DNA of 63,615 nucleotides, filler included, from Klebsormidium nitens (taxonomy: Eukaryota > Plantae > Klebsormidiophyceae), in the NCBI GenBank assembly GCA_000708835.1. It is 6 parts of 6 records of this genome, joined end to end, with 100 filler letters (N's around TTAATTAATTAA, not from the genome) between each part and the next. Parts side by side here need not be neighbours in the genome. Positions count along the whole stretch, not along the records: positions 45,696 to 53,192 come from DF238327.1; 5 more parts are not named here. One strand, given 5' to 3'. The position numbers and the translations under genes are program-made. How positions within the stretch are numbered: position 1 is the stretch's first letter; each line of letters starts with the position of its first letter. Below the pieces are notes generated by a model. That model saw only the letters and a program-made list of their open reading frames with translations, was not told where the DNA came from and made no database searches. Positions 39,601 through 60,575 of this stretch are shown in pieces.

Positions 39601-42600
39601 CTCCGGCGGAACTGGGCGGAATGGACCCCTCGCGGATCCACCTGCTGCTCCAGGCGCACGAGCGCCGACCCCGAGTGCCCGGTATGAATGGGGGGGTGCT
39701 GCGCAGCATGGAAATTGGCCCCCCCTGTGGCGAAGTGGCGGTCTGAGACGACACCCGGGTTCGGGATGACCGGCTTCGGGTTGCTGCGAAGGAGCGTGTT
39801 GATCAGGCTCGTAAGCTTCGAGGGAGTTGACGCGGCAACTGGCGCGGCAGCTCGTGGCGGCACCTTCCCGCGATGAACCACCATAGGCTGGGCACCAGAT
39901 CCCTCCGGTTGTTGCCACGTGGAGGAATGCGACGCTCCCCAGTGAGAGTGCACGGTGGCGGCCGGACTGGCGTAACCTGACCCGGGGGAGTGAACCGGGG
40001 GTTCCGCCCACCCGGTTTGCGAGGGGTGAACGGAATTCCAGTCGTTGCCAGGCCCCGCAGAATGCAAAAACTGGTGCCCTGGGGGTGTCGGTTGATGCTG
40101 GTGGTACCACTGAGGGGACCCCCCCGCTGGCGGCATTGCTGAGGGGGGGTAAAGGTCGCCTCGAGGAGGAACCCCTTGGTTGGGGTGCCAAAGGTGGGTC
40201 GCCTGAGAGGGATGCACTTGGCTGCGCACGGAGTTTGGAGCACCTGGGAAGGGAACGGCGTGGGGGGGATCCCTCGAATATAGACCGCCCGGTGAAGGAG
40301 GGGTCTGGCCCGGGGCATAGGGAGCCACGCCATGGTACTGGCCCACATAACTCGTAGCCCCCGGCGAGACTAAGTTGTCGGTAAACAGGGTCTGGCTTCC
40401 CGCGGCAACGAGGTGGGTGGGGGAGAAGTTCTGTTGCGCGGCCTCGTCGCGTGCGCGCCCCAAGAAAACATCGGCTGCGGGAACTGCCGGACCCGAATAA
40501 ACACTGTGGTACAAAGGACGGCCCTCCAACCCTGGGGCGGGGAACCCGCCGTTGCCCGGGGACTCTGCTCGCCAGAACTCCTCCCACTGATTTGGCAACA
40601 GGCGCGCCCCGTCACGCCCGACGCCGACGGCCGCCGGACCGGACAATTCCCCGTACATCTCCATGCTGCGAGGGTCCGGCACGGGAGTCGTGCGGACCAA
40701 ATCTCCGGGCAGGTAGACAGGAAGGGCGTCGATGCCTCCGAAACGACCGGGGGAGAGGTTATCGGGCTCGGGGAATTGCAAACCGCCGGAACCCCGTGAG
40801 GGAAACTCTCCTGAGCTGGCCGGTGCGCCATTCGCTGAGTCCCCATGGAGCAAATTGCTCGCCTCCGAGCCCGCGCCTGGACGGTTGGGCGACCCGCGCG
40901 CCGGCTGCGACCCCCATCCCTGACCTCCATTCTCGTCTCCGTCCAAATCAAGCCGCGTCCGCTCGCCGTCCATTGGGAGGCCGTCAAACGCCCCTTTCTC
41001 CAGGTCCGAGGACACGCTGCCCAGAAACTCGTCCAAATCGTCCAACTCCTTCAAGTCGGCCGGCTGCAGGCCCCCGGGATCGTCCCCGATAGCGACAGTC
41101 GAGTGCGTACCGGCACCGCCGTAAGCCGGGACGGCAACTAGAGAGGGCAGCCCGCCGCGCGCTGCTCGCCCGCTCGATTGTCGCGCCAAGTGCACCATTG
41201 CCCGCTTCCGACCGCCCGGTGTCCGCCCGTTCTTGCGCCCTGCCCCGCCGGACGGGGTCGCCTTCGCTCGCGGCACGCCCCTCGCACGCTTCGTCCCACT
41301 CCCCCCTTCTCGCCCCTCTTCGTCACGCGCCTCTTCCTCTCGCAACACCTCCCCCGCGGGCAGGACCTCGTCCTTCGACCCCTGTTCGGATTTCTTCTTC
41401 TTCTTCCAAAGCTCGTGCGGACCGTCCGGACCGACGGCCCTCCAGTCCCGGTTAGGGCCCGCTTTCTTGAGCCCCGCTTTCCCCCGGTCTCCGTACCCAG
41501 CGTCCCGGGCCCTTTTCGCCAGCGCCTCGAAGCAGCAGTTGAGCCCGGCCCACGTGCCCACGCTGCTGGCCAACGGGTGCCACGCCGCCGCGACGAGCGC
41601 GTCGCGGAGGTCTTTGATGTCCTGCCGCCCCCAGTGCGTCGCTTGGATGAAGTCGAAGATCGACTGGAGGACGTGGACCAGCTGGTCTAGCGTCATGCTC
41701 TGGGTGCGGCCAGCGTACGCATCGGCGGGTCCCGGGAAGTAGGCGGGGACCTGCAAGTGAGCAATGATGAGCTTTGGCTAATAGTAAACTAACATAAAAA
41801 TTCTCTAATAGTAAACTAACCAGCCTGTGACGGACCGTGGGGTTTGTTTGGGGGGTTTAGGGTGGGTAAGCGTGTGGAGCAGGTGGTACCGCGGGTTTTG
41901 AGTTCTTAGTGGCAGCGTAGGAGCTTGCTACTGCTAGAGCTTATTGCTGCTGATTTCAGGAGACACATAGTGGGGCGGGAGCTGCAATGACGTCAAGAGG
42001 ACCAGCGATTGGAGCAGAGGCTACGTCAGCCTGGCTGGGGCGAAACACCGTTGGAGATCCTCAAGCAGATCACTCCATTGACTCACCATTTGTCAGCAAG
42101 AGCAAAATCAGGAAGGGGGTCTTCTGAGAGGCCATGCTGACCCCTGCATACTGTAGCGTTGGCTTACCGTGGGGTTGAACACCAAAAATCGCAAACAAGA
42201 AACTACTTCTTCCTCGAATATTAAAAGCAGGAAAAGGCAAGTCAGAGGAACCAGTACGTGGAGGAAGTGTGCTTGAGTGGCAATGGGTCTCCTAGGTCTG
42301 ATAAAAGCCTGTCAAGAATAACTATTACAAGCAAGTCAGCTCATTCAAGGGGGATATCCTGCCAAATGGCGCCCCTTGCTTCACCCTTCTTTATTCTTTC
42401 CAGAGTCTTTTGATGGCAGGCCCAAGAGAAGCACGTACATCAGACTTGTTCACAACACAAATTGCAAAATCTGATAAAGAACATGGCAGGTGAGGTCCCC
42501 CTCACAAACAGCTAGAACTAGCTGTCCTTAAAAGGAAGCTTCATTTTGGGATTAGGACTTGGCAACCAAGGTATTTACGAAATTGCTGGGGAATTGGGCT

Positions 42601-44630
42601 TTTTGGTTGGACATTTCCACTATCAGTGATGTGTTGCTTAGTGACAAACCCTTTGACAAGTGTCAAGTTTCTGCCATTGCGTCGGCTCCTCTTTGCACCG
42701 CACCATCTTCTTGATCACAGGACAGGTTAAGAGAAACCTACTTACAGTGCTAGGGTCCGTCTTGGCCTTGGACCTGGGGAAACTGTGCCCAATGGTGTCA
42801 TTAAGGATCCCGATGAAAGCCGCCACAATCGGGTTGAGCTCCACGTGCTTTGCCGTCATCTGAGCGAGCCAATCCGCTGTTTGCAGGTCTGGGTTGGACT
42901 CATCGATGACCTTCTCTCCCCTGCACAAAATGGTCGAAGGTCTCAACACGTGTGGGGCTCACATTCCTGGGGCTGCGGCTACTGTTTTCAAGGTCTACAT
43001 CTTCAGGTTTTGTCGTCGCATTTGCAAGAGCAACCGGATGCCTGAATCTGGACGTCACTGCTGTCGACTCCGTTATAGGTCAAGCCCCCAAGGGATTGAA
43101 AAAACCGGAAGCCGATGCTTGATCAGTTTCAGTTGCTTGCTTCATCAACTATCGCCTGAGCACGTAATCGCTAAGCTAACAGCCAGAAAAGATGGCATTC
43201 TGTGGCATGTCTTGGCGCTATCGGGCCAAGCAAATCTTGACAAGTAAGATCTGGAAAAAGCCCGGCAGAACTGGTGACCTAAAATGGGGAAGCCATTGTA
43301 AAATTGATCTAGTATGATTGCTGAAGTTTTTCGCTCTTCTGCTCAACAAAATGGGAAGACAGAGAATATCCTTTGTTTCACACAATATTTGGGACCTCTC
43401 GTTACACTTGCAGCATTCTGGTGCAAGAGGGGCAGACGACACCATCAAGTGAACAGTTACCCCTGGGCTTTACATGAAACCTAAACGGAGGGTTTACCCA
43501 CTTGGCACCGGCACTGCATCCGTACCATTCTAGACTCCCAACCATCCCCAACTGTCCAGCACTATGTCCTTATTGTTCAGCGCTTATGTGCGTTGAGTAT
43601 TGGGATACTCAGGACTTACCATGCTTTGGCCGCCTCAATAATTGCTTTCAGCCACCACTCAAAAGGTTGCGCGCAGATCCTGAGACTGCACCGCCCGCGC
43701 TCAACAGACACCCAGGCTTGACCCCCGCCCGCCGGGCCCCCAAGCTCGTGTGTCAGAACGTCGCCCAGCTGCGACAGAGGCACAGCCTCCATCCTGGCAA
43801 GCTCCCCAGCTTCAGCTTGTAAGGGCTGCCAGTGGGGATGAATGTGCCTCAGAAACCCATGACTGTGCCTGCGCCCTTGGGTCAAAGAAACCTGCATCAC
43901 ACAATGCAAGGTCTTGTTGACAGAAAGGGGGAGAGAATCTGGCACAACTGGGGTTACCACTCTTGCATTCTGGATTCGAAGGGCTTGCTTTTTCAGTGTC
44001 AATCAACACTGCTTTGCGGCCTTTGCCCTCGTCCAGAAATCCGACGTTTTCAAAGGCTGCCTTGTTGACTAATGGTTGTTCTTGAAAGCTGGAAAGCTTA
44101 AATCTTCTTGTCCTGCATCGATACCACCACAAATAATGCCTGCATTGTGCTTCAAAAGTTGCAACAAAAGCGAGAAGTTTATGATGACACTGGCAAATTT
44201 GCATTCCAGGGCTTTAGAGCTACTTATAATGAGAACAATGTTTGCACACAGATTGGCAGACTTTTGGAATACAAGCCATAATGTGACCAAACTTAGAGAA
44301 CAGAATGACAGCAGCATTGAATGACGTTCAAAATGCTTACCCTGATAGCAGTCTCCCTATCTCAACTTGATTGGGCACCTCTCAAACCCTCAACGAAGAG
44401 CAGGCTGACGTGAGACCGAAGGCTGCAGCTCAGCAATGTGGATTCATGCGGCAAAACTGGCTTAGATTACCTCTTTCGAAAAGAAGCAACATTTTAAAGA
44501 AAGGCTCGTGAAGCAATCGAGAAAATCTGCTGCTAGACCTGGCAACTTGTGCAATGTGCTCCCCTTCTTTAGAGCAAGAGAACAGCTCGCCCGCCAAAAC
44601 CGCGTTGGAACATATGGTGTGCCGCACTGT
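36680..44630 (-). CDS. Uncharacterised multi-exon gene B (right arm of inverted paralog pair); 5' exons look partly degenerate
   Basis: Exons near 43830-43620 (GRCSLRICAQPFEW), 42920-42745 (AKHVELNPIVAA..PRSKA), 41752-39053 (IFDFIQATHWGRQDIKDLRDALVAAAWHPLASSVGTWAGLNCCF), 38690-38530, 37974-37775 and 36940-36680, all homologous to gene A exons. Confidence 0.65.
37544..37862 (-). repeat. 172-bp tandem duplication of an exon 3' half plus donor site in gene B
   Basis: Units start with acgagctttcaaagtct at 37544 and 37716 and end with ttgcggtc. On the minus strand they encode GDRNRDHPAASLYKVQT and DRNGDHPTASVYKLQT, each followed by gtgagctt. Confidence 0.8.
37966..38134 (-). repeat. 65-bp tandem repeat (2.5 copies), each carrying a polypyrimidine-CAG acceptor
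   Basis: gt(c/a)gcacctgga..a(a/g)gg.aa..tatgct at 37966, 38031 and 38096. The minus strand reads pyrimidine tract-ccag|gtgc(g/t)ac. Confidence 0.85.
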
Positions 44631-45239
44631 CAGGGGCCCTCAGCCCGTGCTTGCCCGCCATCTGTCAGCGCAAGGCGGTGAGCGATCCCCCTCTGAAAAG
44701 TTTTGGGCGATCCCCCCAGTGAATGCACACGTGTCAGGCACCGATTCGTCAGAATTGAATGGCGCTCATATATTTGAATTTCAGTTCCGAAGTTCACGAA
44801 TCACCAATATCAAACTGGGTATGCATATTGGCTTGCCTCTTCCCGTAGGGAAGTAGGGCAACCATACATATTGGGTTTTTTGCCGCTGTACGGCGCCGCT
44901 GCGCGGGCCCGCAAATCGACCTGCTCGGCTTGGCCCTGTTCGACGATAAAACTCGGCGTACGGCATAGAAAAATGGCCGGATAGCGGTGCGAAAGGTTTT
45001 TCGACTGGGCCCGCATGCGGCGCAGTTGCCAGTTTACGAATCGAACATTCTGGTACGGCCGGTGAATGGTGCAACTCTTCGTGTCGTACTTCGTGCATGT
45101 TCGCAGACTTCGACGCCGAAGTTTCGTGCGTACTTGGTCGTTGGTGTCACGATTAATAAATCCGGACCGTACAAACGAGCTTTCGACGAACGATACCAAA
45201 TCAGATTGTCCACCGTTGATCGGATAGATAGTCAACGAA

Positions 45240-45422
45240 AAGAGGCAAGCCCTCGCCGTCATACAGACGGCGGCCCATGTATGATATAGGTACCTACATA
45301 TGATTTATACCGTATGCACGAGTACCAGCTACCTACGGTAGTATAGGTAATATTGGTGACTCTGTTCATACATGATCGGGCCGTCTGGCGACGCCGACGT
45401 CGGGGCCGAGGGCTTGCCTCTT
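45240..45422. repeat. 183-bp imperfect inverted repeat (MITE-like or hairpin)
   Basis: Perfect 16-bp arms aagaggcaagccctcg (45240-55) and cgagggcttgcctctt (45407-22). Inner matches are cagacgg/ccgtctg and catgtatga/tcatacatg. Confidence 0.7.
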
Positions 45423-45695
45423 CCGAATTATCGAACGGCTGGAAATTAGCACACAGGGACGACCGGGGCCCCTGCAATTGAAGCCGGACGGCGGAGTTGG
45501 CCGCCAGGGCGGAGATTCCGGTATGCTTATTCCGGGCCCATCCGGGGCCCGGGACGTATACCGGTACCCAGGTCTCAGGCTCCTCCCGACCAGTTNNNNN
45601 NNNNNNNNNNNNNNNNNNNNNNNNNNNNNNNNNNNNNNNTTAATTAATTAANNNNNNNNNNNNNNNNNNNNNNNNNNNNNNNNNNNNNNNNNNNN

Positions 45696-48290
45696 TGCTC
45701 CGAAACGTGTCAGAACATCTCGGAAAGCTGCTGCGACGTGCTTGGCCTCCTTGGCCGGAATAGCACGGAGCTCAATCCATTTGGTGAAGTGCTCGACCAT
45801 GACGACGACGTAGCGGTTGCCGTCATCAGATATCTGTGGCATCTTGCAAAGATCCACGCCCCATCTGTAGAACATGCCCATGATAGGCAGGGGCTTCAGC
45901 TCAGGGTCCTTGACGTCGAACGTCGCCTTGACCCGATCGCACACGGTGCAGGCCGCGACCTCGCGCTGGACCTGACCATACATCCCAACCCACCAGTATG
46001 TGGGGCTCAGTAGCGAATACGTCTTCAGGACGCCGTAGTGGCCGACATCCTGGTGCACACGGCGAATCAGGTTCGCGCGCAGTTCTGGACGGGGGACAAT
46101 CTTTGTCGTGCCGTCTGCGAAGCGTTTTCTGAGGACGCCATCCTTCAGCTGATAGCTCCGGGCTCGGTGCCAGATGCGATCCTTCTGCTTCGGTGTCACG
46201 CTGTTTGCGTACACGCCAGCCTCGAGGTACGCCATCACGGGGGCGTCCTCCCAAATCTCGCGGTCGAACCTGACCGGCAAGTCCACATCATCGTCGGCGG
46301 CCTCACGCAGGGGCGCCACGATCGCAAGTGCCTGCGACTCTGCAGGGCTTCGTGCCTGTGTCTGTACAGGGCTTTCTTCTGGCGTGTCGGCCAGGCTTCC
46401 TCCGGGTGCCGGCATGTCGGCCGCACCGTAAATCAGCTCCGTCAGGGCTGGATCCTCTGGCTCGTTCAAGGTGCCGGCCAAGATGGCAAGGCAAGCCGAG
46501 ACGGCCGACGGCAGCTCAGAACTCACGTGGTCCATCCTCGCGTCCGTCCAATCATCGGTTTCGGGGAGCGGGTTCCGCGAGAGACCGTCCGCATCCAAGT
46601 TCTTCACTCCACTGCGGTGCACGATTTTGACATCGTACTCCTGCAGGATGTTCGCCCAACGGGCGTGCATGCCCGTGAGCCTCGTGTTCGTCATCAGCCA
46701 CTGCAACGGCTCGTGGTCTGTGATCAGTGTGAACGGCCTCCCGTAGAGGTACACGCGGAAGTAGCACACACCCCAGACGGCAGCTAAGCACTCTCCGTGG
46801 TAGCTGGAGTAGTTTCGCTCCGTGCGGTTGTTGCTCCGTGACGCGTATGCGATCACGTATTCCTTCATCTCATCGTCACGCTGTGCGAGAACAGCGCCGA
46901 GCCCAGTAGCGCTCCAGTCGGTGTGCAGCTCAAAGGGTCGGGTAAAGTCAGGCCGCCTCAAGATGGGCGCCTCAGTCAGCTTGAGCTTCAGTTGCTCGAG
47001 AGCCTCCTGTTCCTCAGTGTTCCACTGCCAGGCAACGCCGTTCTGAAGCAGTCGGTTCAGGGAAAAGGCGATGCGGGCGTAGTTCTGGACGTATCTCCGG
47101 TAGTAATTCGTCGTGCCTAGAAAGGCGCGCAACTCCGAGGTGTCCCTCGGCGGAATCATCCGCACGATGGCCTCTACCTTCACGTCCTGCGGGGCGGTTC
47201 CGCCAGGCACGATGTAGTGGCCCAGGTAAGACACGGTGCGAACGGCCAACCTCATCTTCTTCGGGTGGCACTTGATCCGCTTCGCGCGCAGCCGCTCGAA
47301 CACGGCGCGCAGATGTGTCAGGTGCTCCTCGAACGACTTGCTGTGAATGATCACGTCGTCGATGTAACAGCGGCAGAACGCGCGCTGCGCACTCAGTGTG
47401 GTGTCCATCAGCCTCTGAAAGAAGGCAGGGGCGTTTTTCAGCCCAAACGGCATGACAACCCACTCGTACAGGCCGTCGTGGCCCCAGAACGCCGTCTTGC
47501 AGACGTCCTCTTCTGCGATGGCCACCTGGTGGTAGCCCCAACGCAGGTCAAGCGTGGTAAACCAGGTCGAGGTCTCCAGCTCATCAAAGATTTCCTCAGG
47601 GGTCGGCAGCTGGTAGTGATCAGGGGTGCTGACCTTGTTCAGCGCGCGATAGTCCCCGCATGGTCGCTTCAACGTCCAATTGCCGTGCTCGTCTTTCTTC
47701 GGCGGCATGGTTGTAGGCGAGGCCCATGGAGACGTGGAGCGTCGGATAAAGCCGCACTTCAGGCGCTCTTCGACCTGCTCCTTCAAAGTATCTACCTCGG
47801 CGTAGGCTAGCCGGTACTGCCGTTTGAAGATCGGCGTATCATCCGTCACGGGAATTGTGAACTTCTCCCCAATGACCGTGGACATCTCGGACATGTCAAA
47901 TGCTTGCACGTCACGAAACTCGTCCAGCAAGTCCTCCAGAGCCTGTTTTTGCTCAGGCGTAAGATCATCTCGCCCCCCCAAGCCCCAATCTGTCTTCTCA
48001 TCATCCTCATCGTCCGCGGACATCAAGTCCGGGAGATCGGGCGGGTCCGGTTCTGGTTCCTTCTCTGGTGTGCCAACCTGGCCTCTCCCCCCCCCAGCCG
48101 CGGCCGGCGGTCGTCCCGACGCTGTGCCAGGCGGCTGTGTCTGAGGCAGGGGTCCAACTCTCCGAAATTTGCGCTGCTGGAGTAAACCAGCTCGCACGAA
48201 TGCTGCCGCGTGATGCGGCGCCACCAAAGTGGGCTCACCCGATGCATCGGAGGCCATCAGGCCCGACCACCCGCTGGTGGTAGGCCGCAT
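45696..48290 (-). CDS. Gypsy pol: reverse transcriptase, RNase H, integrase (truncated by gap)
   Basis: RPCGDYRALN, FTTLDLRWGYHQV, YEWVVMPFGLKNAP, CRCYIDDVII, LHTDWSATGLGAVL, TDHEPL, ADGLSR, HQDVGHYG..CTVC and RWGVDL. Confidence 0.95.
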
Positions 48291-48296
48291 GAATTG

Positions 48297-50838
48297 TCAA
48301 TCCGAGAAGAACGCGAACTGGAAGCACTTAATGCTGCTGACCAGGAAGGTCAAGGCATGCATGTCCATCGTGCTACCCAGCAAGCGCCGGCGGTCCGCCT
48401 CTGAGACGGCGGGACCAACCTGTGTGCTGTTCTCCAGAAAACCCATAGCGCGCTCGCGCTCTAGGGCCGTCGGTTCCTCCTGGGCGCCGTTGGCGGCCCA
48501 GATCATGCTGTGCTCACCGACGCGGTACGCGTGGGAGCCTCTCATCGTAACGAAAGTGGACAAAGCCCGGAGCGGCTGTCCTGTCTGGTTCACGCGGTGA
48601 CGGCCCGGCGCACCAGAGTGGCGGGCGGCCTGTGCGGTCCGGCCAGGCTCAAGAATGTCCTGGACGCGGCGGAAGTCGGGGCGCTGCTTGAAGCGCTTTT
48701 CGACCATCTCTAACATCAGTGGGCTGGGGATCATGTTGGTCCACCAGCGCCGGTTGCGGTGGGCGAGAGAGCCCGCGGCAACTGCGTCGAACGCGAATCC
48801 TGGGCCTAGAATGCCCTTGACGACGTCGTTGAACTCGTCGCGCACGTCCGCCTGCGGATGATCGCTGGCGTCGACGTTCTCGAACAGGTAGGCGCACGGT
48901 CCGTGGACACTGGTCACAGTGTGCACGACGCGGATGGCCTCCGTAAATAGCTTCGTGCGCGGGTCGCGCAAACCCTTGGGGTTGCTGCCCGCCTTCGAGA
49001 AACCCTGGCATGGGAATCCCGCCACGATCAAGTCGGGTCTCTCTAGATGCTCGATATGGGCGCGCGTCACATCCTGAATGTTATCAGGCAGGGCGCCGTG
49101 GACGTTCAAAAACGCCTCTGTGCTCAGCAGCTCGGGGAACATCTCGTGAAGTTTCCCGAGGCGAAATTCGGCCACCTTCTGTGCCGATTTATCTAGCTCG
49201 CAAGCGTAGACCTTCCGAACCTTCAGGCCACTGCGCACTAGCGCCTCTGTGGTGGCCATCAGGCCGCTGAATAGCTCAATAACTACCAGGCCCGGCCCAG
49301 AAACGTCCAAGACGGCCCGTCGGTCGATCAGACTCTGGTCCAGGGGTCGCAGGCACTGGAACGCGGGGTTCCTGATAGGCCGCGGCGGAGCAGCCGGCAT
49401 CGCAAGCGCGCGCACGCTGCGGTCGAAGATATCTGTCGTGGCTGTCATTAGCTCAGTATTGTACTGATCCAGCCGGCGTCGAGCGGTCTGCGCTTCCAGA
49501 TGCGAGATAGGTGTCTTGATGTGCAACGGCATAACTGCTGCAACGTATCCGCGGATTCCTGCCGCGTAGGCATGCAGCGGCGAGCGACCGTACTCAATCG
49601 GGAATGTACACCGAAGGTACGCACTCCGCTCACTGGCTGTATCCGGGTTCACATAGTACTTCACCCGCTGCTTGCGGGGGTTCGGAATGATGCTAGCCGG
49701 CCCCATGACGCTCATCCCGATCAGGGTGTCAGGTAGCTCGTGGGTGGCAATCACAACGTGCGCCATCACGGTGACGGCGTCTGGTGTCCCCGGGTTCAGC
49801 TCGAAGCTGACCGGCTCAGATGTACGGTCGAGACGGTCGGACAGCTGTCCCGTCGCGCCGCGGATCACCACCGCTCTGCGGCGAATCATGTCAGGGGTAA
49901 TCCCCATTGCCTTGGCACCGGAGGGGCCAGTGATGACGGCCTCCGCACCAGAATCCAGAATCATGTTTGACACCGTGCGCCCATTCACCAGAAGGGCCGG
50001 CTGCGGTCCAGAGTTGTCAATCCGCGGGGAACGGTGGAACCCGGCGGTCGGATCACTGTGGTACGCCCCTGGGAGCTTCCCTAGGAGCGCGCCGATACGG
50101 GGGTTATCCGCATCATAGATGTCGTCTGCAGCCGGCTCGTTGGGCGGATCCAAGGCGGCAGGCGCCTGGTCGGCCTCGGTCAGAGCGGGCGCAGTGTCCA
50201 CTGGGGCAGTCGGCCCGTAAATGACTCCCTGCCGGCGTGGATCGTCCGGCGGAAGTTCCTCAAAGCCCTGGGGCAGAAGCCGAGTCCTGGCTGTCCCCGT
50301 GGCTGCGCTCTTAGCAACATCTCCTGTAATCTCCTTCTCCTTTCCCTTAGCCTGCGCGGTTTCCTCCGGCGCGGCTGTCTGTAAGAGATCCGGCCCAGCG
50401 CTCTGCTCAACCTCGGATGGCTCGGCAGGCTCGGGCATAGGCGGACTAGATGTCCTGATGAAGTCCTTGGGCAAAAAGCCCAGCGGCATGTCGGCAAGGC
50501 GACCACGAAGCCGTTCGTTCTTAGGGGCCTGTCGTGTAAGGCCCGTGTGCACCTTGGGGGCCGCCTCGCGTGGGGCGGCAACCCGGCTACTGCTAATCTG
50601 CTGGTTAGTGGTTCGCGTGGCGGCATGCGCGGACACTATGCACGCGCCGTATCCGGCGACGCGTCCATAGTGGGCGTCCCAAAGCTCCTGAAGCTCTTCC
50701 ATGGTTGGTGCGCCAGGGTCCCGCGGCTCGGTCTTCGGAGCGGCCGGGGCCTGCGCAGCGCGCGCGTTCGTTACGGGCGGCGCTGATGGCGCTGATGACG
50801 CCCCATTCTGTAGGGCCTTGCACTCGGCCGTGTCATGT
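48297..50838 (-). CDS. Gypsy aspartic protease followed by C5 cytosine DNA methyltransferase domain (~49290-48297)
   Basis: Protease MILDSGAEAVI near 49955. DNMT motifs in canonical order: IELFSG (I), ACELD (II), NIQDV (III), AGFPCQGFS (IV, catalytic Cys), LFENV (VI), HRNRRWWTN (VIII), ERERAMGF (IX) and LLGSTMD (X). Confidence 0.92.
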
Positions 50839-51431
50839 GNNNNNNNNNNNNNNNNNNNNNNNNNNNNNNNNNNNNNNNNNNNNNNNNNNNNNNNNNNNNN
50901 NNNNNNNNNNNNNNNNNNNNNNNNNNNNNNNNNNNNNNNNNNNNNNNNNNNNNNNNNNNNNNNNNNNNNNNNNNNNNNNNNNNNNNNNNNNNNNNNNNNN
51001 NNNNNNNNNNNNNNNNNNNNNNNNNNNNNNNNNNNNNNNNNNNNNNNNNNNNNNNNNNNNNNNNNNNNNNNNNNNNNNNNNNNNNNNNNNNNNNNNNNNN
51101 NNNNNNNNNNNNNNNNNNNNNNNNNNNNNNNNNNNNNNNNNNNNNNNNNNNNNNNNNNNNNNNNNNNNNNNNNNNNNNNNNNNNNNNNNNNNNNNNNNNN
51201 NNNNNNNNNNNNNNNNNNNNNNNNNNNNNNNNNNNNNNNNNNNNNNNNNNNNNNNNNNNNNNNNNNNNNNNNNNNNNNNNNNNNNNNNNNNNNNNNNNNN
51301 NNNNNNNNNNNNNNNNNNNNNNNNNNNNNNNNNNNNNNNNNNNNNNNNNNNNNNNNNNNNNNNNNNNNNNNNNNNNNNNNNNNNNNNNNNNNNNNNNNNN
51401 NNNNNNNNNNNNNNNNNNNNNNNNNNNNNNN

Positions 51432-52639
51432 TGGGCACATTGAGCGGCATAGTGGCCCGGCTCTCCGCACTCGTAACATACCTTCTCGTTCTTTCCTGAG
51501 CCGCCGCGCTGCGGCGCTGCGGCCGCGTTGGCCTGAACCATGGGCGCTATATGGCCCTTCTGCGGTGGCGACCGGCAGTTCCTGGCGATATGACCTGTCT
51601 TGCCGCAATTGTGGCATACGCGGTTGTCTACGGGCCTGTCGACGGCCGTCGACCTAGCGGGTGCACCACGTGCTGCATCATGGGTGCTCGGCTGCGACGC
51701 TGAGCTCCAGAGCGCTTCGGTGCATCGCTTCTTCTCAAGGCGGATTGCCACTCGGCTGATCTGATCGACTGATAAGTCATCGTCGCCTGTATCCTCGGCC
51801 CAAACGACCCGTCGAACCTCTGCGCGGAACGGCTTCGGCTCGATCGCATCTAGCAGCTTCTGGGCGGCCATGCCCTCGGGCCTCTGTAGGACCGTCATGA
51901 GCGTCTTCATCCTCTGCGTGAGGCTCGACATGCTCTCATTCGGCTGCATCTTGAAGGTGTTGAATTCGTTGATCCGGGCAGTGGACTTCTCTGGAAAGAG
52001 GTCCTTGATCATGGCCCAGAACTGCTCGACTGGGCTATCGTATACCAGGAGGGCCTTCGGCCGCTCTGGTTTGACCGGCTCGGGCAGGGCCGCGCTCTCG
52101 GTCGCTTCCATCGCATCATATCGCTCATGCTCCCGTTCATATTCGGCGAGCTCGCGCTCGTATGCACGACGGCGCGCTTCATTCCGCTTATCGAGATCGT
52201 CGGCCATGCGAGTCTCTAGCTCGCCGGCGCGATCGCGAGCCTGACCGGCGGTCAGCTCGACGAGGAAGTAGAAGTAGTCATTCTCATCCAAATTCTCTAG
52301 ATTATTGCGCAGCTTAAGCTTTGACATCATCGTTTTATAGCTTTGTCGCAGATGTGATACGCTCATCCCGTCTGGTCCGCCGGTAAAGCGGCCAGCGCCA
52401 TGCGGCACATGTGTGCTATCCATGATGTCGTCGGTTTCCACAACCCAACTCACAGGATTTTCGTTATTGCGCAATACACTCAAATGCGACGGCGACGCAA
52501 CAGTGGAGCTCTCAACAATATAATCACTGCCCGTGGCCACAATATATGCCTGGGACGAACTCCCGGCGTCACTCTCAACGGTACTCTCAACTCTATCCAC
52601 CTGCCGATGAGGTAGGTTTCTAAAGTTGTACCTGTGCAT
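51432..52639 (-). CDS. Gypsy gag with CCHC zinc knuckles
   Basis: CHNCGKTGHIARNC and CYECGEPGHYAAQC. HDTAEC after the gap suggests a third knuckle. The capsid-like region includes EFNTFKMQPNESMSSL. Confidence 0.88.
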
Positions 52640-52705
52640 CCGCCTAGCTACTCCTAGCGCCCCAAGCGCTTAAGCTAGCTAGCAGTCGCGGCACACTACT
52701 CTCAC

Positions 52706-52920
52706 TCCCCCCTGCCGCGACCTCCGTTCTGGTCACGGTTACGGCGCTCTCCGTCGTCGTTGCGGTCACGCCCGCGGCCACGGCCACGGCCACGTCCACG
52801 CCACCCGCCTCCACGTCCGCGCTGGTACTCCTCGCGATCGTCCCAACGGCGGTCTCTGCGGCGGTCGTCTCTGTCACGACGGTCGTCCCTGTCGCGGCGC
52901 TCGTCCTGGCGGCCGTCACC
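52706..52920 (-). other. Putative RD/RG-rich exon upstream of gag
   Basis: GDGRQDERRDRDDRRDRDDRRRDRRWDDREEYQRGRGGGWRGRGRGRGRGRDR.. is preceded by ctgat..tttcccctctgtgtggatccag and followed by gtgaga. A 74-nt GT-AG intron (52705-52632) would join it in frame to gag. Confidence 0.5.
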
Positions 52921-53293
52921 TGGATCCACACAGAGGGGAAACGGATCAGTCTTACTGGCGAACTCACTTCAAAAAGGGTTCAGCGCACAGACTCTCACGG
53001 GCGGACTCACTTTGCAGAGGTCCAGCACCAAGAATGTAACCAAGGGTTTCGGCTAACCCCAAACCTAACGGGCGCACAATTCCAAAAAGGACGTGCTGCA
53101 CACTCGGGCGAACTCCCTTCGAAAAGGTTTCTGCCTCAGGACCGCGAACTCCCTTAGGGCAAAGGTTTCAGCGGGTCCTAGTAGTCGTTGTCNNNNNNNN
53201 NNNNNNNNNNNNNNNNNNNNNNNNNNNNNNNNNNNNTTAATTAATTAANNNNNNNNNNNNNNNNNNNNNNNNNNNNNNNNNNNNNNNNNNNNG

Positions 53294-55969
53294 GCAGAAG
53301 CAACAGGTTCGAGGACCTACGGGTTTCATCAAAATCAGGCCTTCAGTAAAGCAGTCATCCCCTGAGCCTACGCTTGCTTTCAAAAAGTATCCAAGGTGCC
53401 ATCACCAATTCAACTGCTATACCGTTTCAAGCGGCCTTAACTTAAGCTCTTCTCCAATCAAGATGCTCACCTCCGGGTGGGGGCCGCATATGCTGCAGCA
53501 CTCCAGGATCTGCCGCCCCACCAGCCGGAAGAAATCGAGGCTGGCCTTCCGCCACGTCTCCTCTGAGAGGACGGCGCACTCTGGTGCCCTCCGAAAGGCC
53601 TCCTGCTGTCCCTCCAGCAGGGCCCCGAACCCCGACTGGCCCCGCTGCATCTGCTTGAGCAGCAGCTGGAGGCTCTCCTGTACAACAATCGTCTGACGGC
53701 TCCAAGCGTACAGCCCCAAGTGCTCCCCGTCGAAGTGGATGGTGTGCTTCCTCGCGCATTTGCAGGAGTAGATCCTGGTGCGCACTGCTTGGCTCCAGGT
53801 CGAGGCATGCACCACCGCGTCCTGCCAGAGCTCCATCCACTTCCCACCGCACGGAGGCGGTTCGAGAGGACACGGCGCGCTCAGCATCCCGAGCTCTCCC
53901 AGCTCCTGAAAGTCCCTTCCTACCAGCTTGCTCACTCGGATCGGTCCGCATCTGAGCCGAGTCACCCACGGATCGTGAAAGTCCGGGGCGTCGCTCAGCT
54001 GGCTCAGCTTCGGCTGCGTCACCTGGACGGCCTGCGTCTCCTGAAGCATAACCGGGGCCCTCCCCTTGCCCCCATGCTGGCATCCCCGTTGGGCACCCTC
54101 CAGCGTGCAGCTGCCACAGGAGGAGACCCAGCATCGGATTGCTTCCTTGCCTAGCGCCTCCGCGGGCGGCTCCTGAACACTCTTGGGTGCCATCGCCCGG
54201 GGAGCCCCGCCCGCATGACTCCTATACCACTGCTTGCTCCTGCGCGCCCCCCTCCATGGCTCGCTCACGCCCGGCCCCTGGGTTTGTGATGATGCGGACG
54301 GCTCAGCTACTCCAAACAATTGCTGGTGCTCTTGACAGAAGCAGTCCGCACCAGCGCATCCGGCCGGCTCGTGGCGCTGTCCTGATATGAGGCCCATCAG
54401 GTGCGCCTCCGCCTCGCCGGCCCCTTCGGAGTCCACACGCGACTCGCTCCCCCCCGCCCTCCTGCCGATCAATGGCAGCGCTCCGTCCCATTGCTCCAAC
54501 CACTGCCTCGCTGTACTTAGGGCATCCTGCCTAAGAAGCAACCCCTGTGCAAAATGGACCTGCCCCGCTCGGACGGCCAGGTTCGCAGCGATGACGTGGC
54601 TGCAGTCGTGCTGCGACGGACAGCCGTCCCTCTTCCCCTGGCAGTACCAGGCGCCCTCGACGCTCCGATGCAGCATCTTGTGAGCCGGGCTGACCCCCTT
54701 AGGGCTGCTCCTCACGGCAAAGAAGCGCCCCGTAGAGTCCGTACCCACCTGCTCGACCAGCCCCGCTCCCCGTCCCAACTGTCTGGCAGTGGGGAGGCCC
54801 CCTTGCTGCAACCCCGGAGCGCCGAGGGTCGCGAGCACCAGCTTGTGAACGCAAGCAGCGTCCTTGGCTAGCCTGCTGCGATTGCACGAGCAGTTCGAGG
54901 ATCCCTGGCTATCCCACCAGCACTCCTCCAGCAACGCCTTCTCCTTGGTGGGCTTGCCGAGAGCTTTCGGCCTCGCTCGATTGTGATCCCAATGCGTCAT
55001 GTAGAGCCGCAGGGGGCTGGCCTCACACTCGTCCACTCCAGCAGGAACAACTATGCGGCACGTGCCCTCCAGGACGCCGCTCAGGAAGAGGCCAGCTTGG
55101 GCCGGGATGCCGAGGCGCTCCTCAGGCTGCAGGTGCCAACTAGATCTTTCAGGCAAACTTCCTGACCGCTCTCGGAAAACAACCTCACGCCTTGCTCACA
55201 GTCGGAGCTGAACGAGCAGCTCAGAATCGCATCCGGGATTTTGCGCATTATCCCGCCTTTCAAGTGGCGGGCCATGAGAAATTCCATGAACAGCATGTAG
55301 TCGGTCCGTGTGCTCCCCCTCTTAGCGTGGGCACAGGCAAGACAGTGTGTCCATTGAAATCTCAGGGGACGGGCGCAATCGCTTGCAGACGCTCGTTGCA
55401 TTGCAAATCATCATAGGTTCTATCAAGAAATTATCTGCACTCACCAGCATCTCGCGCGCGCGGCTGCCGGCTTGCATGCCCCTGTTCAATGCGCTCTCAG
55501 CTGCCGCCTTTTTCGGCTTCTTCCTGCTCACGGTGCTCTCGTTTGAGATCACAACCCCCTCCAGCAGCTCGTTCGTCAGCTCCAGCGTTTGCTTCCAGCT
55601 CCCCGAGGCCTGGCGCTCGAACAACAGCGCATCTTGCTCGCGCAGGCTCACGCTCTGAGCATCGGCGCTGACCTTCAATTCCCCCATCAGCTTGCCCACG
55701 CATCCTAGGCAAAGGATCTGCCTCCTCTGCTTGTTCTTGGGCACGCCGCAGCTGACCAAGTAGCCCTTCATCGCACACCTGCGGAAGCTCAGCCTCAAGC
55801 TCCCATCCGTACCGCCTGTGCCCTTCCAAACCTGCTGCCTGCAAGTGATGCACCTGCCAGAAATCTGCCCTATCTCCGCCGGTCGGACGCTCTCCTCGCC
55901 TATGTAGTAAAGGCCGCGTCCGATCTGAGCTAGATCCGAAGCCTGATACTGCTCGGTAGGGGCTGCCAT
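53294..55969 (-). mobile_element. KDZ (Kyakuja-Dileera-Zisupton)-type DNA transposase, N-terminal part with Zn fingers and CxC cluster; catalytic part missing or degenerate
   Basis: ATG at 55969. SWIM-like NCSCNRSRLAKDAACVH and YCQGKRDGCPSQHDCSH. CxC4-like YSCKCARKHTIHFDGEHLGLY..QESL..WRKASLDFFRL..CCSICGPHPEV. An out-of-frame IGDGT remnant with stops lies near 53410. Confidence 0.72.
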
Positions 55970-56831
55970 GCTCGAAAACCCCCCTACATGCATCAGCATG
56001 CACGAAGGCTGCCCCTTGTGAACCAACTGGGAGCTCGACTGACACTGCCTACCTCCGACCATCTTTGCTCATCCTTCCGGCCTCTCTCTCTCCCTAAGTA
56101 TGTCTTGCCTCTAGACTGGACTGCTGCCCGGGACGCGGAAGGCTCGAAATTCGATGATAACCGCTTCGAAGAGCTCCGGCGGGCCGCCGAGTTCGCTGCA
56201 GGGGGGCTGCTGGCAAATTCCTCTTCGGTACCGTTATCAGTCAGGTGACGCTAAGCCAAAACTCGAGTTTTCAGGACCGTCCGATCGATCGCGAGAACTT
56301 AGGGATTGGTAGGACGCATTCCGGCCGTCCGATAAGGCCGACCTTCATTTGGTTGCCCCACTTGCCCTAAAGTTCGCCAGCGACAACTTCGGCAGATCTA
56401 GCCGATCGAGTCGCGGCGCCGCCTTCGCCAAGTTCTGCAATGACACTACTACTTCTTTCTAGGGAGAGTACCAATCCAGGCCCAAATAATCCAGGCCCGA
56501 GTTTCAAGGCCGAATCCAGGCCGTTGATACTTCGTCCTGTCCGACACTCCGACACCCTTTCTAAACTGTTTTGCGGCTCAGCCCGTACCGGTGCCTACGG
56601 TAGCCATGTACCCCAGCCTAGCCAACCCCGCGGGGGTCTGTCCCACCTGGAAGATATGTACCGGGCCCGCGCGGCCGGAGCCGCGAACCNGACGCTACCA
56701 TTTTGGTTGTGCTTAAAGTGGGCGNNNNNNNNNNNNNNNNNNNNNNNNNNNNNNNNNNNNNNNNNNNNTTAATTAATTAANNNNNNNNNNNNNNNNNNNN
56801 NNNNNNNNNNNNNNNNNNNNNNNNCACCCGC

Positions 56832-57230
56832 ATGGACATAGCCTCCAGGGTCAAGAAGATGAAGGAGGTGGTGGACGGCTTCGACAAGTTCTCCTCGGAA
56901 CGTCTCAAGGGCCTGGAGGAGAGGGACAAGAAGAGGAAAGACAAGGAGACCGCCACGAAGAGCAAGACCAAGAGCAAGCCCCACGCCGCCAAGCGGAGCC
57001 CGCGGGCGAAGCACGGCACATCTCCTGCCCCGGAGCCCCCCGGGACCCCTCCGGCCCGTCCGCAAGCACCCGTGCTCGTGCCGCAGATCGCCCCCACGCC
57101 GATCCATCATCAGCAGGCCAGAGCACCGCCCCGACCGTCTCAGCTCATCCTGTCCCGAGACCTGGCCCCTCCTCCCCAGCAACAATCCCCCGGAACCGCC
57201 AGCAAGATCGTGTCGTTCCTCCCCGCATGA
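56832..57230 (+). CDS. Hypothetical basic, P/Q-rich 132-aa protein (virus-like contig)
   Basis: Intronless ORF with strong G/C-ending codon bias, 77 bp upstream of the primase on the same strand. Confidence 0.6.
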   Translation: MDIASRVKKMKEVVDGFDKFSSERLKGLEERDKKRKDKETATKSKTKSKPHAAKRSPRAKHGTSPAPEPPGTPPARPQAPVLVPQIAPTPIHHQQARAPPRPSQLILSRDLAPPPQQQSPGTASKIVSFLPA

Positions 57231-57307
57231 GGGGCAGGGGCTTAAGGAAGCGCGCGGGGGAGGGAGGGGACCATCTTTAAAATCTCCCCATCCAAGGAGG
57301 GTTCGAG

Positions 57308-59125
57308 ATGGAGGCCGAAGCAAGGAGGGCGCGCGACTTCGAGGGGCTCTACCATCTCGGGCTGGTGCCCGTCTCCGTGAACATCACGAGCGAGGCGCAG
57401 GGCGAGAAGACGGCCAAGTTCGTGACTTCCTGGCGCGACCTGGACCGAGACAACTGCCTCAGATTCTTCTCGCCGGAATGCAACTCGATCGCCGTCCGGA
57501 CCGGCGCCATCTCCGGGATCCTCGTGGTGGACTTCGACAACACGTCGGAACGGGGCACCGAGAATGCCGAGGGGAGCAAGGCGAACGGGATGGAGGCGCT
57601 CGAGACCTGGTCGCTGCGGCACGGCCAGGACCTGAACACATGGACCGCCAAGACGGGCAAAGACGGCGTCCACCTCTACTATCGGTACCCCGGGGCGAGC
57701 TGCTCGTACGGCCTCGGCAACAGGGCCGGGCTCTCCATCGACGGGCGCGACTTCGCGGTGGACATCAGGGGCGACGGAGGGGTCATCTTCGCACCCGGCT
57801 CATCGTACCAGTCCTGCGACGGTCGCACGCTCACGTACGAATGGACCAAACACCCGCGGGACACGCCCATCCTGGACGTGCCCGCGTGGCTCGAGGAGGT
57901 CCTCGTGGAGAACGACAGGGCGGGGTGCGCGCAGGGGCGCCAGAGAGGGCCTCGAGGCGCCCCGCCCAGGGGCACGTCGACCCCCAGCCGGCTACCGGGG
58001 GCGCCCAACGCCCCCTTCAGGCTGTATCGCATGCAAGATGTACCCTTCTGTGCCGGCCAACAGGTGTCCGGGACTCGAGCCTTCGGCCCGGTCCTAGACG
58101 AGACGGACGCCGCCACAGAGGGCCTGGACGAGGCGGCCATAGACCGGCTCATCAATGCGTCCGACTACGAGGACCCGCACGCCAAGCGCAGCAGGGCGCA
58201 AGATCGCGTCCGTTTCAGGCAGACGATCGGCGAGCTGGAGGAGATGCTCGCCAACCACCCGAGCCACCCGGACACCACGTCCGTCTTCGACGCCGTGTAC
58301 CGCGGCAACATCTTCACGTTCCGAGTCAAGGGCCCCCGCGTGTGCACGTACGGCGTCCGGCACTCCGGCTCCAACAACTTCTCCATCAAGATCATCGAGC
58401 GCAACTGTTTCGTCTACTGCCACGGCACCATCTGCTCCGGACTCTCCAAGCAGCACCTAGGGCGCCTCTCCATCGGGGCCTACCTCGAACGCTCCCCGAA
58501 CAACCCCGTCTCCATCCACGACAGCTCCGTCGTCGACGTGCTGCAGACGGCCGAACATCTGCTGAAGAACTACGTGCACACGGAGAGCGCTAAGGCCGCC
58601 GCCCACATCTACGCCGCCGCGGTCAGGGGCGGGCGCATCGTGGTGGACCCAGACGACCAATTCTGGCTCTGGGCCGGCACCCTCTACAGGCAGATGGGCC
58701 TCAGCGACGTCAAGTACCTCGCCTCCGAGCAGCTCGAGTTCGTCCTCCGCGCCTACAACGAACGGGTCCGCCACGAGTGCCGCATCGCCGCGGCCGAAGG
58801 GGGCGAGGCTCCCGACGAGGAAGCTCCTCCGAGCAAGCGCAGGGCCACCGGCCCACCCGAGAAGAAGGCCAAGGGGCTCGCCGACCTCCGCAAGTGCGGC
58901 AACTCGAGCTTCATGGACAACACCCTCAAGTTCCTCAGGCCCATCCTCAAGCAGGTGGACTTCCTGGAGTCCCTGGACCAGACGCCCGACCTGCTGCCCT
59001 GCAAGAACGGCATCGTGGACCTCCGCACGGGAGAGCTCCGCCCCCACCACCCCCGCTACCTCAACACCAAGCTGGTCGACGTCCCCTACAAGCAGAACCC
59101 GACGAGCACCACCTGGCGCGACTTC
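57308..59125 (+). CDS. Viral-type primase-helicase: bifunctional Prim-Pol + UL52-like Zn finger + D5_N (C-terminus in gap)
   Basis: NSIAVRTGAISGILVVDFD, TAKTGKDGVHLYY and DIRGDGGVIFAPGS (Prim-Pol). CTYGVRHSGSNN..VYCHGTIC (Zn finger). QFWLWAGTLY and LDQTPDLLPCKNGIVDLRTGELRPHHP (D5_N). Intronless over 1.8 kb. Confidence 0.88.
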
Positions 59126-59225
59126 NNNNNNNNNNNNNNNNNNNNNNNNNNNNNNNNNNNNNNNNNNNNTTAATTAATTAANNNNNNNNNNNNNNNNNNN
59201 NNNNNNNNNNNNNNNNNNNNNNNNN

Positions 59226-59335
59226 CGGATACCTCAATTACACTACGACTCCCTACCATGAATTTCAACACTCCATATGTATTGTGTGAACTTGATCATT
59301 CAATCATTCATTCCAAACACAACGTGTTTCAAAAG
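59226..59335. repeat. Fragment of the copia-family LTR in opposite orientation
   Basis: 59267-59301 is the exact reverse complement of 60610-60644 (gaatgatcaagttcacacaatacatatggagtgtt), with weaker similarity out to ~59335. Confidence 0.8.
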
Positions 59336-60575
59336 TCCGTTTTGGAGATCATCTTGCCGGCGCAACGGTATGGCTGATGGCCGTTGATAGTCCGGACCAG
59401 TCAGAGATATTGAAGCTGGATCTGACCTCATTGCTTGAGTTGATCTGCTGCAAAAGATGCCCGCATACTAGCGGATGCTTGGCCGGCTGCGTGTACACCT
59501 GAAATTGAAAGCGAAACCGTTGCAAAAGCTGCATGCAAATCTTCAAGCCATAGTTGAACTTGATCTAATGTGGTCGGATTTTGAAATGGACATCAAAGAG
59601 GGGCGGCAATCTCAGTAAGGGTTGAAAGAGACCTTTTCGACTACAATAGGCGGAGCATGCATGTTATCAATACACAGATGAAACAGATTTGAGTGTACGT
59701 TCGATTGTCAACATTCGCTTCCGTCCCTTTTTCTCATGATGTCGCGATCCCGATCGCACTCCAAGGATCCGTCTTTTATCCCGCTCAGATTCCACGGGCC
59801 CGTCTTCGATGATATTTCTTTGTTGGCACCATGCTTAGTTGTGCCATCGTTATCACCTTAAGTTCTTAAGCCGCTTGATGCCCAGCTATGCTACCATCAA
59901 AACTAACATGACCTTCAGTGTCATTAGGTGATCGTGGTTGGCTTTTGCAAGCTTCCAAAATTCTCCTTTTTTTAGAAATGTGTGCGTCATTCGTTCTGTG
60001 TCCTCAACTACACAACGACCCCCTTCCATGTCTTTCAACAGTGTTGAGACGCAATTTTCGATAAATGAGGTGAACAGACACGTGTAAGACGGTGGGCGCA
60101 AGGGCGTGAAGATGTTGGCGCGAGCATTTGATGATGGGTTTGAAAGTGTGAATATCGTAAGTGAAGCGCCAAAAGGCTAAGAAGCCCGTGAAGAAGCCGA
60201 AGTGTCGAGATTCTCTACTAGAATGAGGCGTGAGCCCGCAAAGTGGTACCAGGCAGTGGTGGGAGCTATGTACAGCGGAAGCCGTGGGAGCCAAAGAGCC
60301 GGAGCACGGAGTGGAAAAGACGTTGCCGGAAAAGGGCTTTGCATTGTGCTATCAAGAAAGCGAGGGTAACGAAAGTGGAAGCGCGTGGGGACGCCAAAAT
60401 AAAAAGAAGGCGGCACGCAAGGAGAACAAGAAGACATGTCACAAAACTAGAGTTGAACTCGTTTAAATAGGAGAGTTAGAATATGGTGATTATGGCCAGC
60501 CGAATTATTGTGATCCAACAAGGTCCCATCCGAGTTAGGGTTTGGACTAGTGAACGCCGACGTGCTTACACGGCA

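Follow-up and report, generated by a model that had tools for sequence, protein, structure and literature searches.

We analyzed a 63,615-nucleotide stretch of the Klebsormidium nitens genome assembly GCA_000708835.1 (the window, filler included), in which positions 45696 to 53192 carry a Ty3/Gypsy-type retrotransposon that encodes a C5 cytosine DNA methyltransferase (DNMT). This segment is one entire scaffold of 7,497 bp (DF238327.1), with the element on the minus strand, where three long open frames span nearly all of its length. The window itself is interrupted by five identical linkers, each consisting of 44 N, TTAATTAATTAA and another 44 N (21622-21721, 45596-45695, 53193-53292, 56725-56824, and 59126-59225), and is thus a chain of separate contigs, so that features cannot be read across the linkers and the neighboring context is not real. 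Because both ends of the segment are scaffold ends, the long terminal repeats (LTRs) are not visible and the boundaries of the element lie outside the scaffold; position 45696, which the original prediction for this DNA had taken as the start of the element, is the end of a contig. The features found along the element, from its 5' to its 3' side, are as follows (ORF, open reading frame; RT, reverse transcriptase).

52640-53192, minus strand: 5' leader upstream of ORF1, extending to the scaffold end, with no recognizable LTR boundary (a linker begins at 53193)
52639-52637, minus strand: ATG of ORF1; the protein relative P0003 opens with the same MHRYNFRNLPHRQ
51432-52639, minus strand: beginning of ORF1, encoding gag, whose two CCHC zinc knuckles lie at about 51572-51622 and about 51434-51478 (zf-CCHC, E value of 8.7e-12, two stretches)
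50840-51431, no strand: assembly gap in ORF1, 592 N, with a real length of 68 nt according to a contig of run X1
49707-49988 (approximate), minus strand: retroviral-type aspartyl protease (PF13650 Asp_protease_2, E value of 3.8e-5, 24.7 bits, cutoff of 24.3)
48300-49298, minus strand: DNMT3-like C5 cytosine DNA methyltransferase domain, C terminus of ORF1 (PF00145, E value of 5.4e-16)
48297-48299, minus strand: in-frame TGA separating the DNMT from the RT (TGA CAA TTC), read from the translation and conserved in relatives
47703-48296, minus strand: start of ORF2, with an open, poorly conserved linker of about 105 residues and then an RT-leading part conserved with the metagenome locus L001
47214-47702, minus strand: reverse transcriptase (RVT_1, E value of 1.1e-30)
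46635-47024, minus strand: RNase H of the Ty3/Gypsy type (RT_RNaseH, E value of 4.1e-35; RT_RNaseH_2, E value of 2.9e-34)
45696-46088, minus strand: integrase, H2C2 zinc domain plus the beginning of a catalytic core that is truncated at the scaffold end (Integrase_H2C2, E value of 1.9e-14)

The Pfam domains thus appear in the order CCHC, protease, PF00145, RVT_1, RT_RNaseH, Integrase_H2C2, and rve, and the element has the Pol order of Ty3/Gypsy retrotransposons, i.e., protease (PR), RT, RNase H (RH), and integrase (IN), with a Ty3-type RNase H and an H2C2 integrase. The ORFs contain no introns and are uninterrupted except for the N gap and one conserved TGA. The protease also gave a second Pfam match (gag-asp_proteas, E value of 3.4e-4) and shows a DSGAE motif in its translation, while rve matched only at profile positions 6 to 63 of 102 (E value of 0.0031), where the scaffold ends and a linker precedes 45696. 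The profile searches that had been proposed as a check returned the methyltransferase, the RT and a truncated integrase core. The domain order and the presence of all motifs bore out the description of the element as a Gypsy retrotransposon in which an intact DNMT is located between the protease and the RT. The DNMT had also been described as fused in frame downstream of the protease, which is correct as far as the protease is concerned, but the TGA that separates the DNMT from the RT had been overlooked.

The methyltransferase domain scored 59.3 bits against PF00145, versus a cutoff of 22, in a match that covers the N-terminal half only. When compared with the PDB sequences by phmmer, DNMT3C, DNMT3A, and DNMT3B came out on top (best E value of 8.9e-10), and both halves of the domain aligned to DNMT3C and DNMT3A, so the C-terminal half of the methyltransferase is present despite the half-length Pfam match. 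The translation and the alignment contain the residues ELFSGLMA, ACELD, GFPCQGFS, LFENVDA, AHRNRRWWTN, ALERERAMGF, and LLGSTMDMH, which we take to be motifs I, II, IV, VI, VIII, IX, and X, respectively. Motifs I to X are colinear and in canonical order, with no DRM-like rearrangement. An AlphaFold2 model obtained with alignment A2 (mean pLDDT of 81.6 and pTM of 0.85) had DNMT3B, DNMT3A, and DNMT3C as its best Foldseek matches (E value of about 7e-15, target TM-score of 0.75 to 0.78), although the query TM-score was only 0.55 to 0.59 due to an extra segment between motifs VIII and IX. DRM2 (E value of about 0.006) and, in the phmmer comparison with PDB, DNMT2 (E value of 0.0078) appeared at lower ranks. 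Motifs IV, VI, VIII, IX, and X align with those of the animal enzymes DNMT3A, DNMT3B, and DNMT3C (PDB 6u8p, 4u7t, 8tci, and others), but the identity is only 20 to 23%, and the domain of the element has neither PWWP nor ADD in Pfam and is embedded in a retrotransposon polyprotein. The presence of a DNMT in this retrotransposon is real and far beyond chance. By its residues the domain appears to be catalytically competent, with the S-adenosylmethionine (SAM)-binding motifs, the motif IV Cys, ENV, RxR, and motifs IX and X all in place, and its membership of the Dnmt3 clade is suggested both by the ranks of similarity to PDB entries and by the published study of the family (PMC5890265).

That study (de Mendoza et al. 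2018, Nat Commun 9:1341) described in K. nitens a Gypsy LTR polyprotein with intronless Dnmt3-related DNMTs, the motifs of which are not rearranged, versus DRM. The family was named KnitGypsy-Dnmt3, and its main text reports conserved key residues and a ratio of nonsynonymous to synonymous substitution rates (Ka/Ks) of <0.2. The DNMT region of our segment is 100% identical, over 100% of the query, to KFL_013780020, partial [Klebsormidium nitens]. From this identity, the shared species and the domain set described there, the segment belongs to the KnitGypsy-Dnmt3 family, and we are highly confident that it is a truncated copy of it with the coding layout given above. The original prediction had cited the right paper and missed that the segment is the paper's own family in its own species; the element has been known in K. 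nitens since 2018 and is no new kind of element. The two are alike in species, Gypsy domains, intronless and nonrearranged Dnmt3-type DNMT, and conserved residues, with possible signs of purifying selection in both, and nothing sets the element of the window apart. Its DNMT as the C terminus of a Gag-protease ORF and the conserved TGA were not found in the text of the paper, and the words "readthrough," "frameshift," and "protease" are absent from its main text, to which this comparison refers (the figures and supplements may show the ORF layout and the stop). A search of the literature from 2018 on for Klebsormidium Gypsy DNA methyltransferase retrotransposons found only this paper; a 2025 article (PMC12344493) refers back to the Klebsormidium report of 2018, and a 2026 preprint (10.64898/2026.05.21.726589) cites the same report and calls the element streptophyte "Gypsy-DNMT3." According to the legend of Fig. 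4c of the 2018 paper, the terminal repeats of KnitGypsy-Dnmt3 are arranged as in DIRS elements; such repeats lie outside the present scaffold. Its copies were reported to be silent, with CHG/CHH methylation (PMC5890265). As a separate observation, nearly all changes between the element and the contigs of run X9 (6,408 records at ≥90% identity) are C>T or G>A (35 of the 40 changed places), a bisulfite-like pattern. If X9 consists of bisulfite data, many cytosines were left unconverted, which would fit the heavy methylation published for KnitGypsy-Dnmt3 copies.

Inside ORF1, a contig of run X1 bridges positions 50839 and 51432 with 68 letters, compared to the 592 N of the assembly, which overestimates the size of this gap. 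X1 is possibly the source sample and hence not independent. With a true gap of 68 nt, gag and protease-DNMT fall into a single continuous ORF (1208 + 68 + 2540 nt = 1,272 codons), and 1,272 codons is the exact length of P0003, a single ORF with 91% identity that runs from MHRYNFRNLPHRQ to FAFFSD. The public gene model for this locus, KFL_013780020 (P0002), begins in the GC-rich leader and splices into gag, bypassing the natural ATG and omitting the first ~130 residues common to P0003 and the window; its N terminus looks like an annotation artifact. Two contigs of a run that is only guessed to be RNA touch positions 47892-48040 and 52506-52919, and nothing was inferred from them.

Directly after the DNMT comes the TGA at 48297-48299, beyond which ORF2 (RT-RH-IN) keeps the frame of ORF1. 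Positions 48060 to 48467, stop included, are covered by a run X1 contig with 0 differences. Six protein relatives with 51 to 91% identity (P0003, P0004, P0006, P0007, P0008, and P0010) terminate at the homologous residue, and among the relatives listed by the exhaustive search described below, those with >45% identity that reach the C terminus of the DNMT end with it. DNA sequences with the same arrangement came from a metagenome scan with alignment A1, in which 446 of 599 matched stretches encode a relative at a tblastn E value of ≤1e-3. The best 80 were kept as loci, and two of them (L001 and L002, 44 to 45% identity, both short and decayed) are family members; the other 78, with 21 to 37% identity over part of the domain, were not used. 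Both L001 and L002 carry a TGA at the same place, in the context TGA CGG TTA, with the next ORF in frame 0, so that TGA-C and a downstream frame 0 are found in all three DNA sequences (window, L001, and L002). The first ~105 codons past the stop have no similarity between the window and L001, yet they are open and in frame in both, and 59% identity follows before the RT. More distant relatives (P0035, P0037, and P0062; 34 to 37% identity) encode gag-PR-DNMT-RT-RH-IN in a single ORF without any stop. Across these sequences, the TGA is a conserved feature and not the lesion of one copy.

TGA followed by C is a leaky stop context, and both TGA CAA TTC and TGA CGG TTA resemble known leaky contexts. 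Gammaretroviruses such as murine leukemia virus (MLV) carry an in-frame stop between Gag and Pol. Programmed read-through of an in-frame stop is an accepted way of expressing Gag-Pol in Ty3-type elements, and the fission yeast elements Tj1, Tosmo1 to Tosmo3, and Tcry1 are described (PMC10085805) as having, like ours, an in-frame stop with the downstream frame in 0. In those elements and in MLV, the stop is located after Gag, whereas here it comes after protease and DNMT, the read-through is predicted, and there is no significant stimulatory RNA structure. By analogy, we consider it on balance probable that ORF2 is made by read-through of the TGA.

The gag-PR-DNMT ORF is found in many independent records at 45 to 91% identity, and the protein relatives of the DNMT include 31 of near length and 8 longer ones. 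Further K. nitens models match the DNMT region: KFL_000540020 (89%), KFL_003910030, and a "DNA/RNA polymerase superfamily protein." Run X5 has a copy 95 to 99% similar to the element. The four runs gave 171 differences, 40 of which were examined and 30 of which had X5 support; 23 of these 30 are synonymous and 22 are located at third codon positions, while only 5 lie in the DNMT domain (4 synonymous and 1 not). In an alignment of 207 domain matches from 200 relatives, 183 of 188 keep the motif IV Cys and 191 of 193 the Glu of ENV. The two Arg of RxR are retained in 184 of 188 each, and for the residues of motifs IX and X the figures are 161 to 173 of 166 to 174. Many relatives, P0035 and P0037 included, have ECQ instead of PCQ in motif IV (Glu in 76 and Pro in 101 of 188) and keep the catalytic Cys. 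The deep conservation of the catalytic residues supports selection on the DNMT, as far as sequence comparison can tell. Two outcomes that would have spoken against the original prediction, a DNMT absent from other copies and motifs free of constraint, were therefore not observed.

These data also bear on whether the arrangement could be an artifact, be it of assembly, of the gene model or of a fusion that arose by chance in a single dead copy. With its 7,497 bp, the scaffold is short, and it is interrupted by an N gap and consists entirely of repeat sequence, and the N terminus of KFL_013780020 does not match the simple ORF. However, contigs of both X1 (with the reservation made above) and X5 tile the protease-DNMT-stop-RT stretch, the gag-PR-DNMT ORF recurs in the independent records just mentioned, named Closterium proteins have the same order, and the family has been published (PMC5890265, main text), which makes an artifact extremely improbable.

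To place the element in a wider family, we used the 387-residue domain for an exhaustive HMMER search, which retrieved 2,416 cluster representatives with an E value of ≤1e-3, 511 with ≤1e-10, and 135 with ≤1e-30. A Pfam scan was performed for the 28 best-scoring among the listed representatives of at least 1,000 residues. In 23 of these 28, the DNMT is located after the RNase H and/or before the integrase; a PHD finger usually follows the integrase, and one representative has a Tudor domain. The order of the window is found in 3 (CCHC-PR-DNMT, CCHC-DNMT-RT-RH-IN, and DNMT-RT-RH-IN), and the DNMT was the only domain seen in the remaining 2. P0056, P0059, P0063, P0068, P0075, and others carry a related DNMT (30 to 39% identity) between RNase H and integrase, as does the "pol" of Scenedesmus sp. 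PABB004 (RT-RH-DNMT-IN-PHD). Proteins of Closterium sp. NIES-68 (CCHC-PR-DNMT) and Closterium sp. NIES-54 (DNMT-RT-RH-IN) (P0053, P0087) have the architecture of the window, indicating that the Klebsormidium-type element is also present in zygnematophycean algae. A literature search on Closterium found no paper on a DNMT3-bearing retrotransposon. By these sequence matches, the DNMT clade is broad in public data, occupies at least two polyprotein positions and almost always keeps its catalytic residues.

Other retrotransposons carrying C5 DNMTs are SymbioDIRS-Dnmt3 and SymbioLINE-Dnmt of Symbiodinium (PMC5890265). The former has a Dnmt3-type domain in Pol that methylated CG de novo in yeast. 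Both belong to other retrotransposon classes (DIRS, with a tyrosine recombinase, and LINE) and to a dinoflagellate host, and the same paper treats them as an independent capture. EpiLTRs and DAM-LTRs (Fernandez-Moreno et al. 2026, 10.64898/2026.05.21.726589) are likewise LTR retrotransposons with DNA methyltransferase domains, but, according to the preprint, their DNMTs fall beside DNMT4 and they have a Dam-like adenine methyltransferase and a chromodomain, an acquisition distinct from that of streptophyte Gypsy-DNMT3.

Elsewhere in the segment, the 5' leader contains tandem repeats within 52763-52906 (a 6-nt CGGCCA unit repeated 7 times and an 18-nt unit repeated 2.5 times), and several imperfect copies of a unit of ~60 nt containing GAAACCTTT...GAGTTCGCC can be recognized by eye at 52950-53192. 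Rfam returned nothing at the gathering threshold over 45696-53192, direct repeats of ≥60 nt were not found in 40000-60000, and tblastn detected no second copy of the element proteins in the window. As for the other large ORFs of the window, five of six had no Pfam match and one had a weak, subthreshold match to CxC4. The latter is a 592-residue open frame on the minus strand of the next contig (53420-55195), with the CxC4 cysteine cluster of KDZ transposases (E value of 1.9e-4, 21.7 bits, cutoff of 26.9), and may be another transposon fragment.

From this layout, the following mechanism can be proposed. ORF1 would give an abundant Gag-PR-DNMT polyprotein of ~1,272 codons, and occasional read-through of the TGA would give a Gag-PR-DNMT-RT-RH-IN fusion, as in Tj1/Tosmo and the gammaretroviruses, so that the DNMT would be about as plentiful as Gag, with RT-IN as a minor product. 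Once freed by the protease, the DNMT would be present where the cDNA is made, travelling with the particle proteins, and could introduce 5-methylcytosine de novo into the double-stranded cDNA, at integration or earlier. Self-methylation of the cDNA is put forward tentatively as the role of the enzyme and falls somewhat short of what we would call probable. Packaging with premethylation of the cDNA is essentially the hypothesis raised in the discussion of the 2018 paper, which lists host-like camouflage, protection from deaminases, insertion site effects, and self-limitation as candidate benefits (PMC5890265). The present element might in this way pass as host-like DNA, be shielded from editing or limit its own copy number. 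More tentative still is a wider proposal that joins two parts. In the Klebsormidium subclade, the conserved leaky TGA would assign protease and methyltransferase to the abundant Gag product, with RT-integrase confined to the rare read-through product, giving each particle a de novo DNA methyltransferase at capsid level; and the family would belong, as a single branch, to a far larger and for the most part undescribed group of green-algal DNMT-bearing Gypsy elements, in which one captured DNMT3-like module has moved between polyprotein positions with its catalytic residues kept. We see this as a possibility that may well not hold.

Several points weigh against the mechanism proposed for the element or limit it. 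The copy is truncated at both scaffold ends, so that its completeness and age cannot be judged and the termini, LTRs, and target site duplication are missing. That the 68-nt gap contains no stop is presumed by analogy with P0003 only. The evidence on frame comes from three DNA sequences, two of them mutually close, and the metagenome loci are imperfect, L002 being a decayed copy with two premature stops and L001 having its frame broken inside the RT. The synonymous counts cover 30 of the 171 differences. As the published copies are silent and CHG/CHH methylated, the present copy may not be expressed (PMC5890265, main text). Two further points concern the read-through itself, since the RNA downstream of the TGA did not fold better than its shuffles (z of -1.1 to -1.9, with 11 to 28 of 200 shuffles folding equally) and an ATG follows shortly after the stop, 2 codons on in the window, 9 in L001 and 17 in L002, so termination-reinitiation would also be possible. 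RT-RNase H-integrase would then arise from reinitiation at this ATG, or from a separate or subgenomic transcript, and the DNMT would never be fused to the RT; the stretch of ~105 residues after the stop, unconserved in sequence, is in line with this. However, reinitiation does not require ORF2 to be in frame 0, as it is in 3 of 3 DNA sequences, the position of the ATG is not conserved, and the TGA-C of all three is a leaky context. Besides, the distant relatives have a sense codon at this place and one fused ORF. We therefore regard reinitiation or a separate transcript as unlikely and retain read-through as the predicted route to ORF2.

The last point against is that the isolated KnitGypsy DNMT domain showed no methylation in yeast (PMC5890265). 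The authors considered this result inconclusive, according to the main text, because human DNMT3B failed as well. The near-universal retention of the catalytic residues argues that catalysis matters, and activity may depend on the natural precursor or on a cofactor from the host. The yeast result could also mean that the domain methylates RNA (the genomic RNA or the tRNA primer, in the manner of DNMT2) or is a noncatalytic nucleic acid-binding module, and RNA methylation has been proposed for the LINE-borne DNMT in the text of the same paper. However, the catalytic and SAM-binding motifs are all intact, including the motif IV Cys, ENV, and RxR, the retention across relatives (183 to 191 of 188 to 193) speaks against a noncatalytic role, and the best sequence and fold matches are to DNMT3, with DNMT2 found only at an E value of 0.0078. 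Such a role is quite improbable.

A DNMT with activity on DNA might also act on host chromatin and not on the cDNA. Made in Gag-like amounts, it would pass into the nucleus, with the insertion site or further host DNA as its substrate, and would alter local chromatin or limit transcription of the element itself (copy number control). If read-through is rare, its position upstream of the stop would make it much more plentiful than RT-IN. In related elements, the DNMT is accompanied by chromatin readers such as PHD and, in one case, a Tudor domain next to the integrase, a pairing that suggests chromatin-directed action across the wider clade. Effects on insertion site and retrotransposition rate are raised in the discussion of the 2018 paper (PMC5890265). 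However, Pfam detects no reader domain (PHD, chromo, PWWP or other) in the element of the window, and the K. nitens methylome is reported in that paper's main text to be plant-like and undisturbed. We consider action on host chromatin improbable and keep methylation of the element's own cDNA as the tentative role of the enzyme.

What this analysis adds, namely the conserved stop, the corrected gap size, and the finding that the clade is broad, is modest and amounts to useful annotation and not a discovery. That retrotransposons carry the class of enzyme with which their hosts silence them is a striking twist in the contest between genomes and transposons, a point published in 2018 for this family and species. 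The layout of Gag-protease-DNMT, TGA, and RT-RNase H-integrase is relevant to the ratio in which DNMT and RT-IN are produced. Given that the isolated domain failed in yeast, the Gag-PR-DNMT precursor or the product released from it by the protease may be the form to assay.

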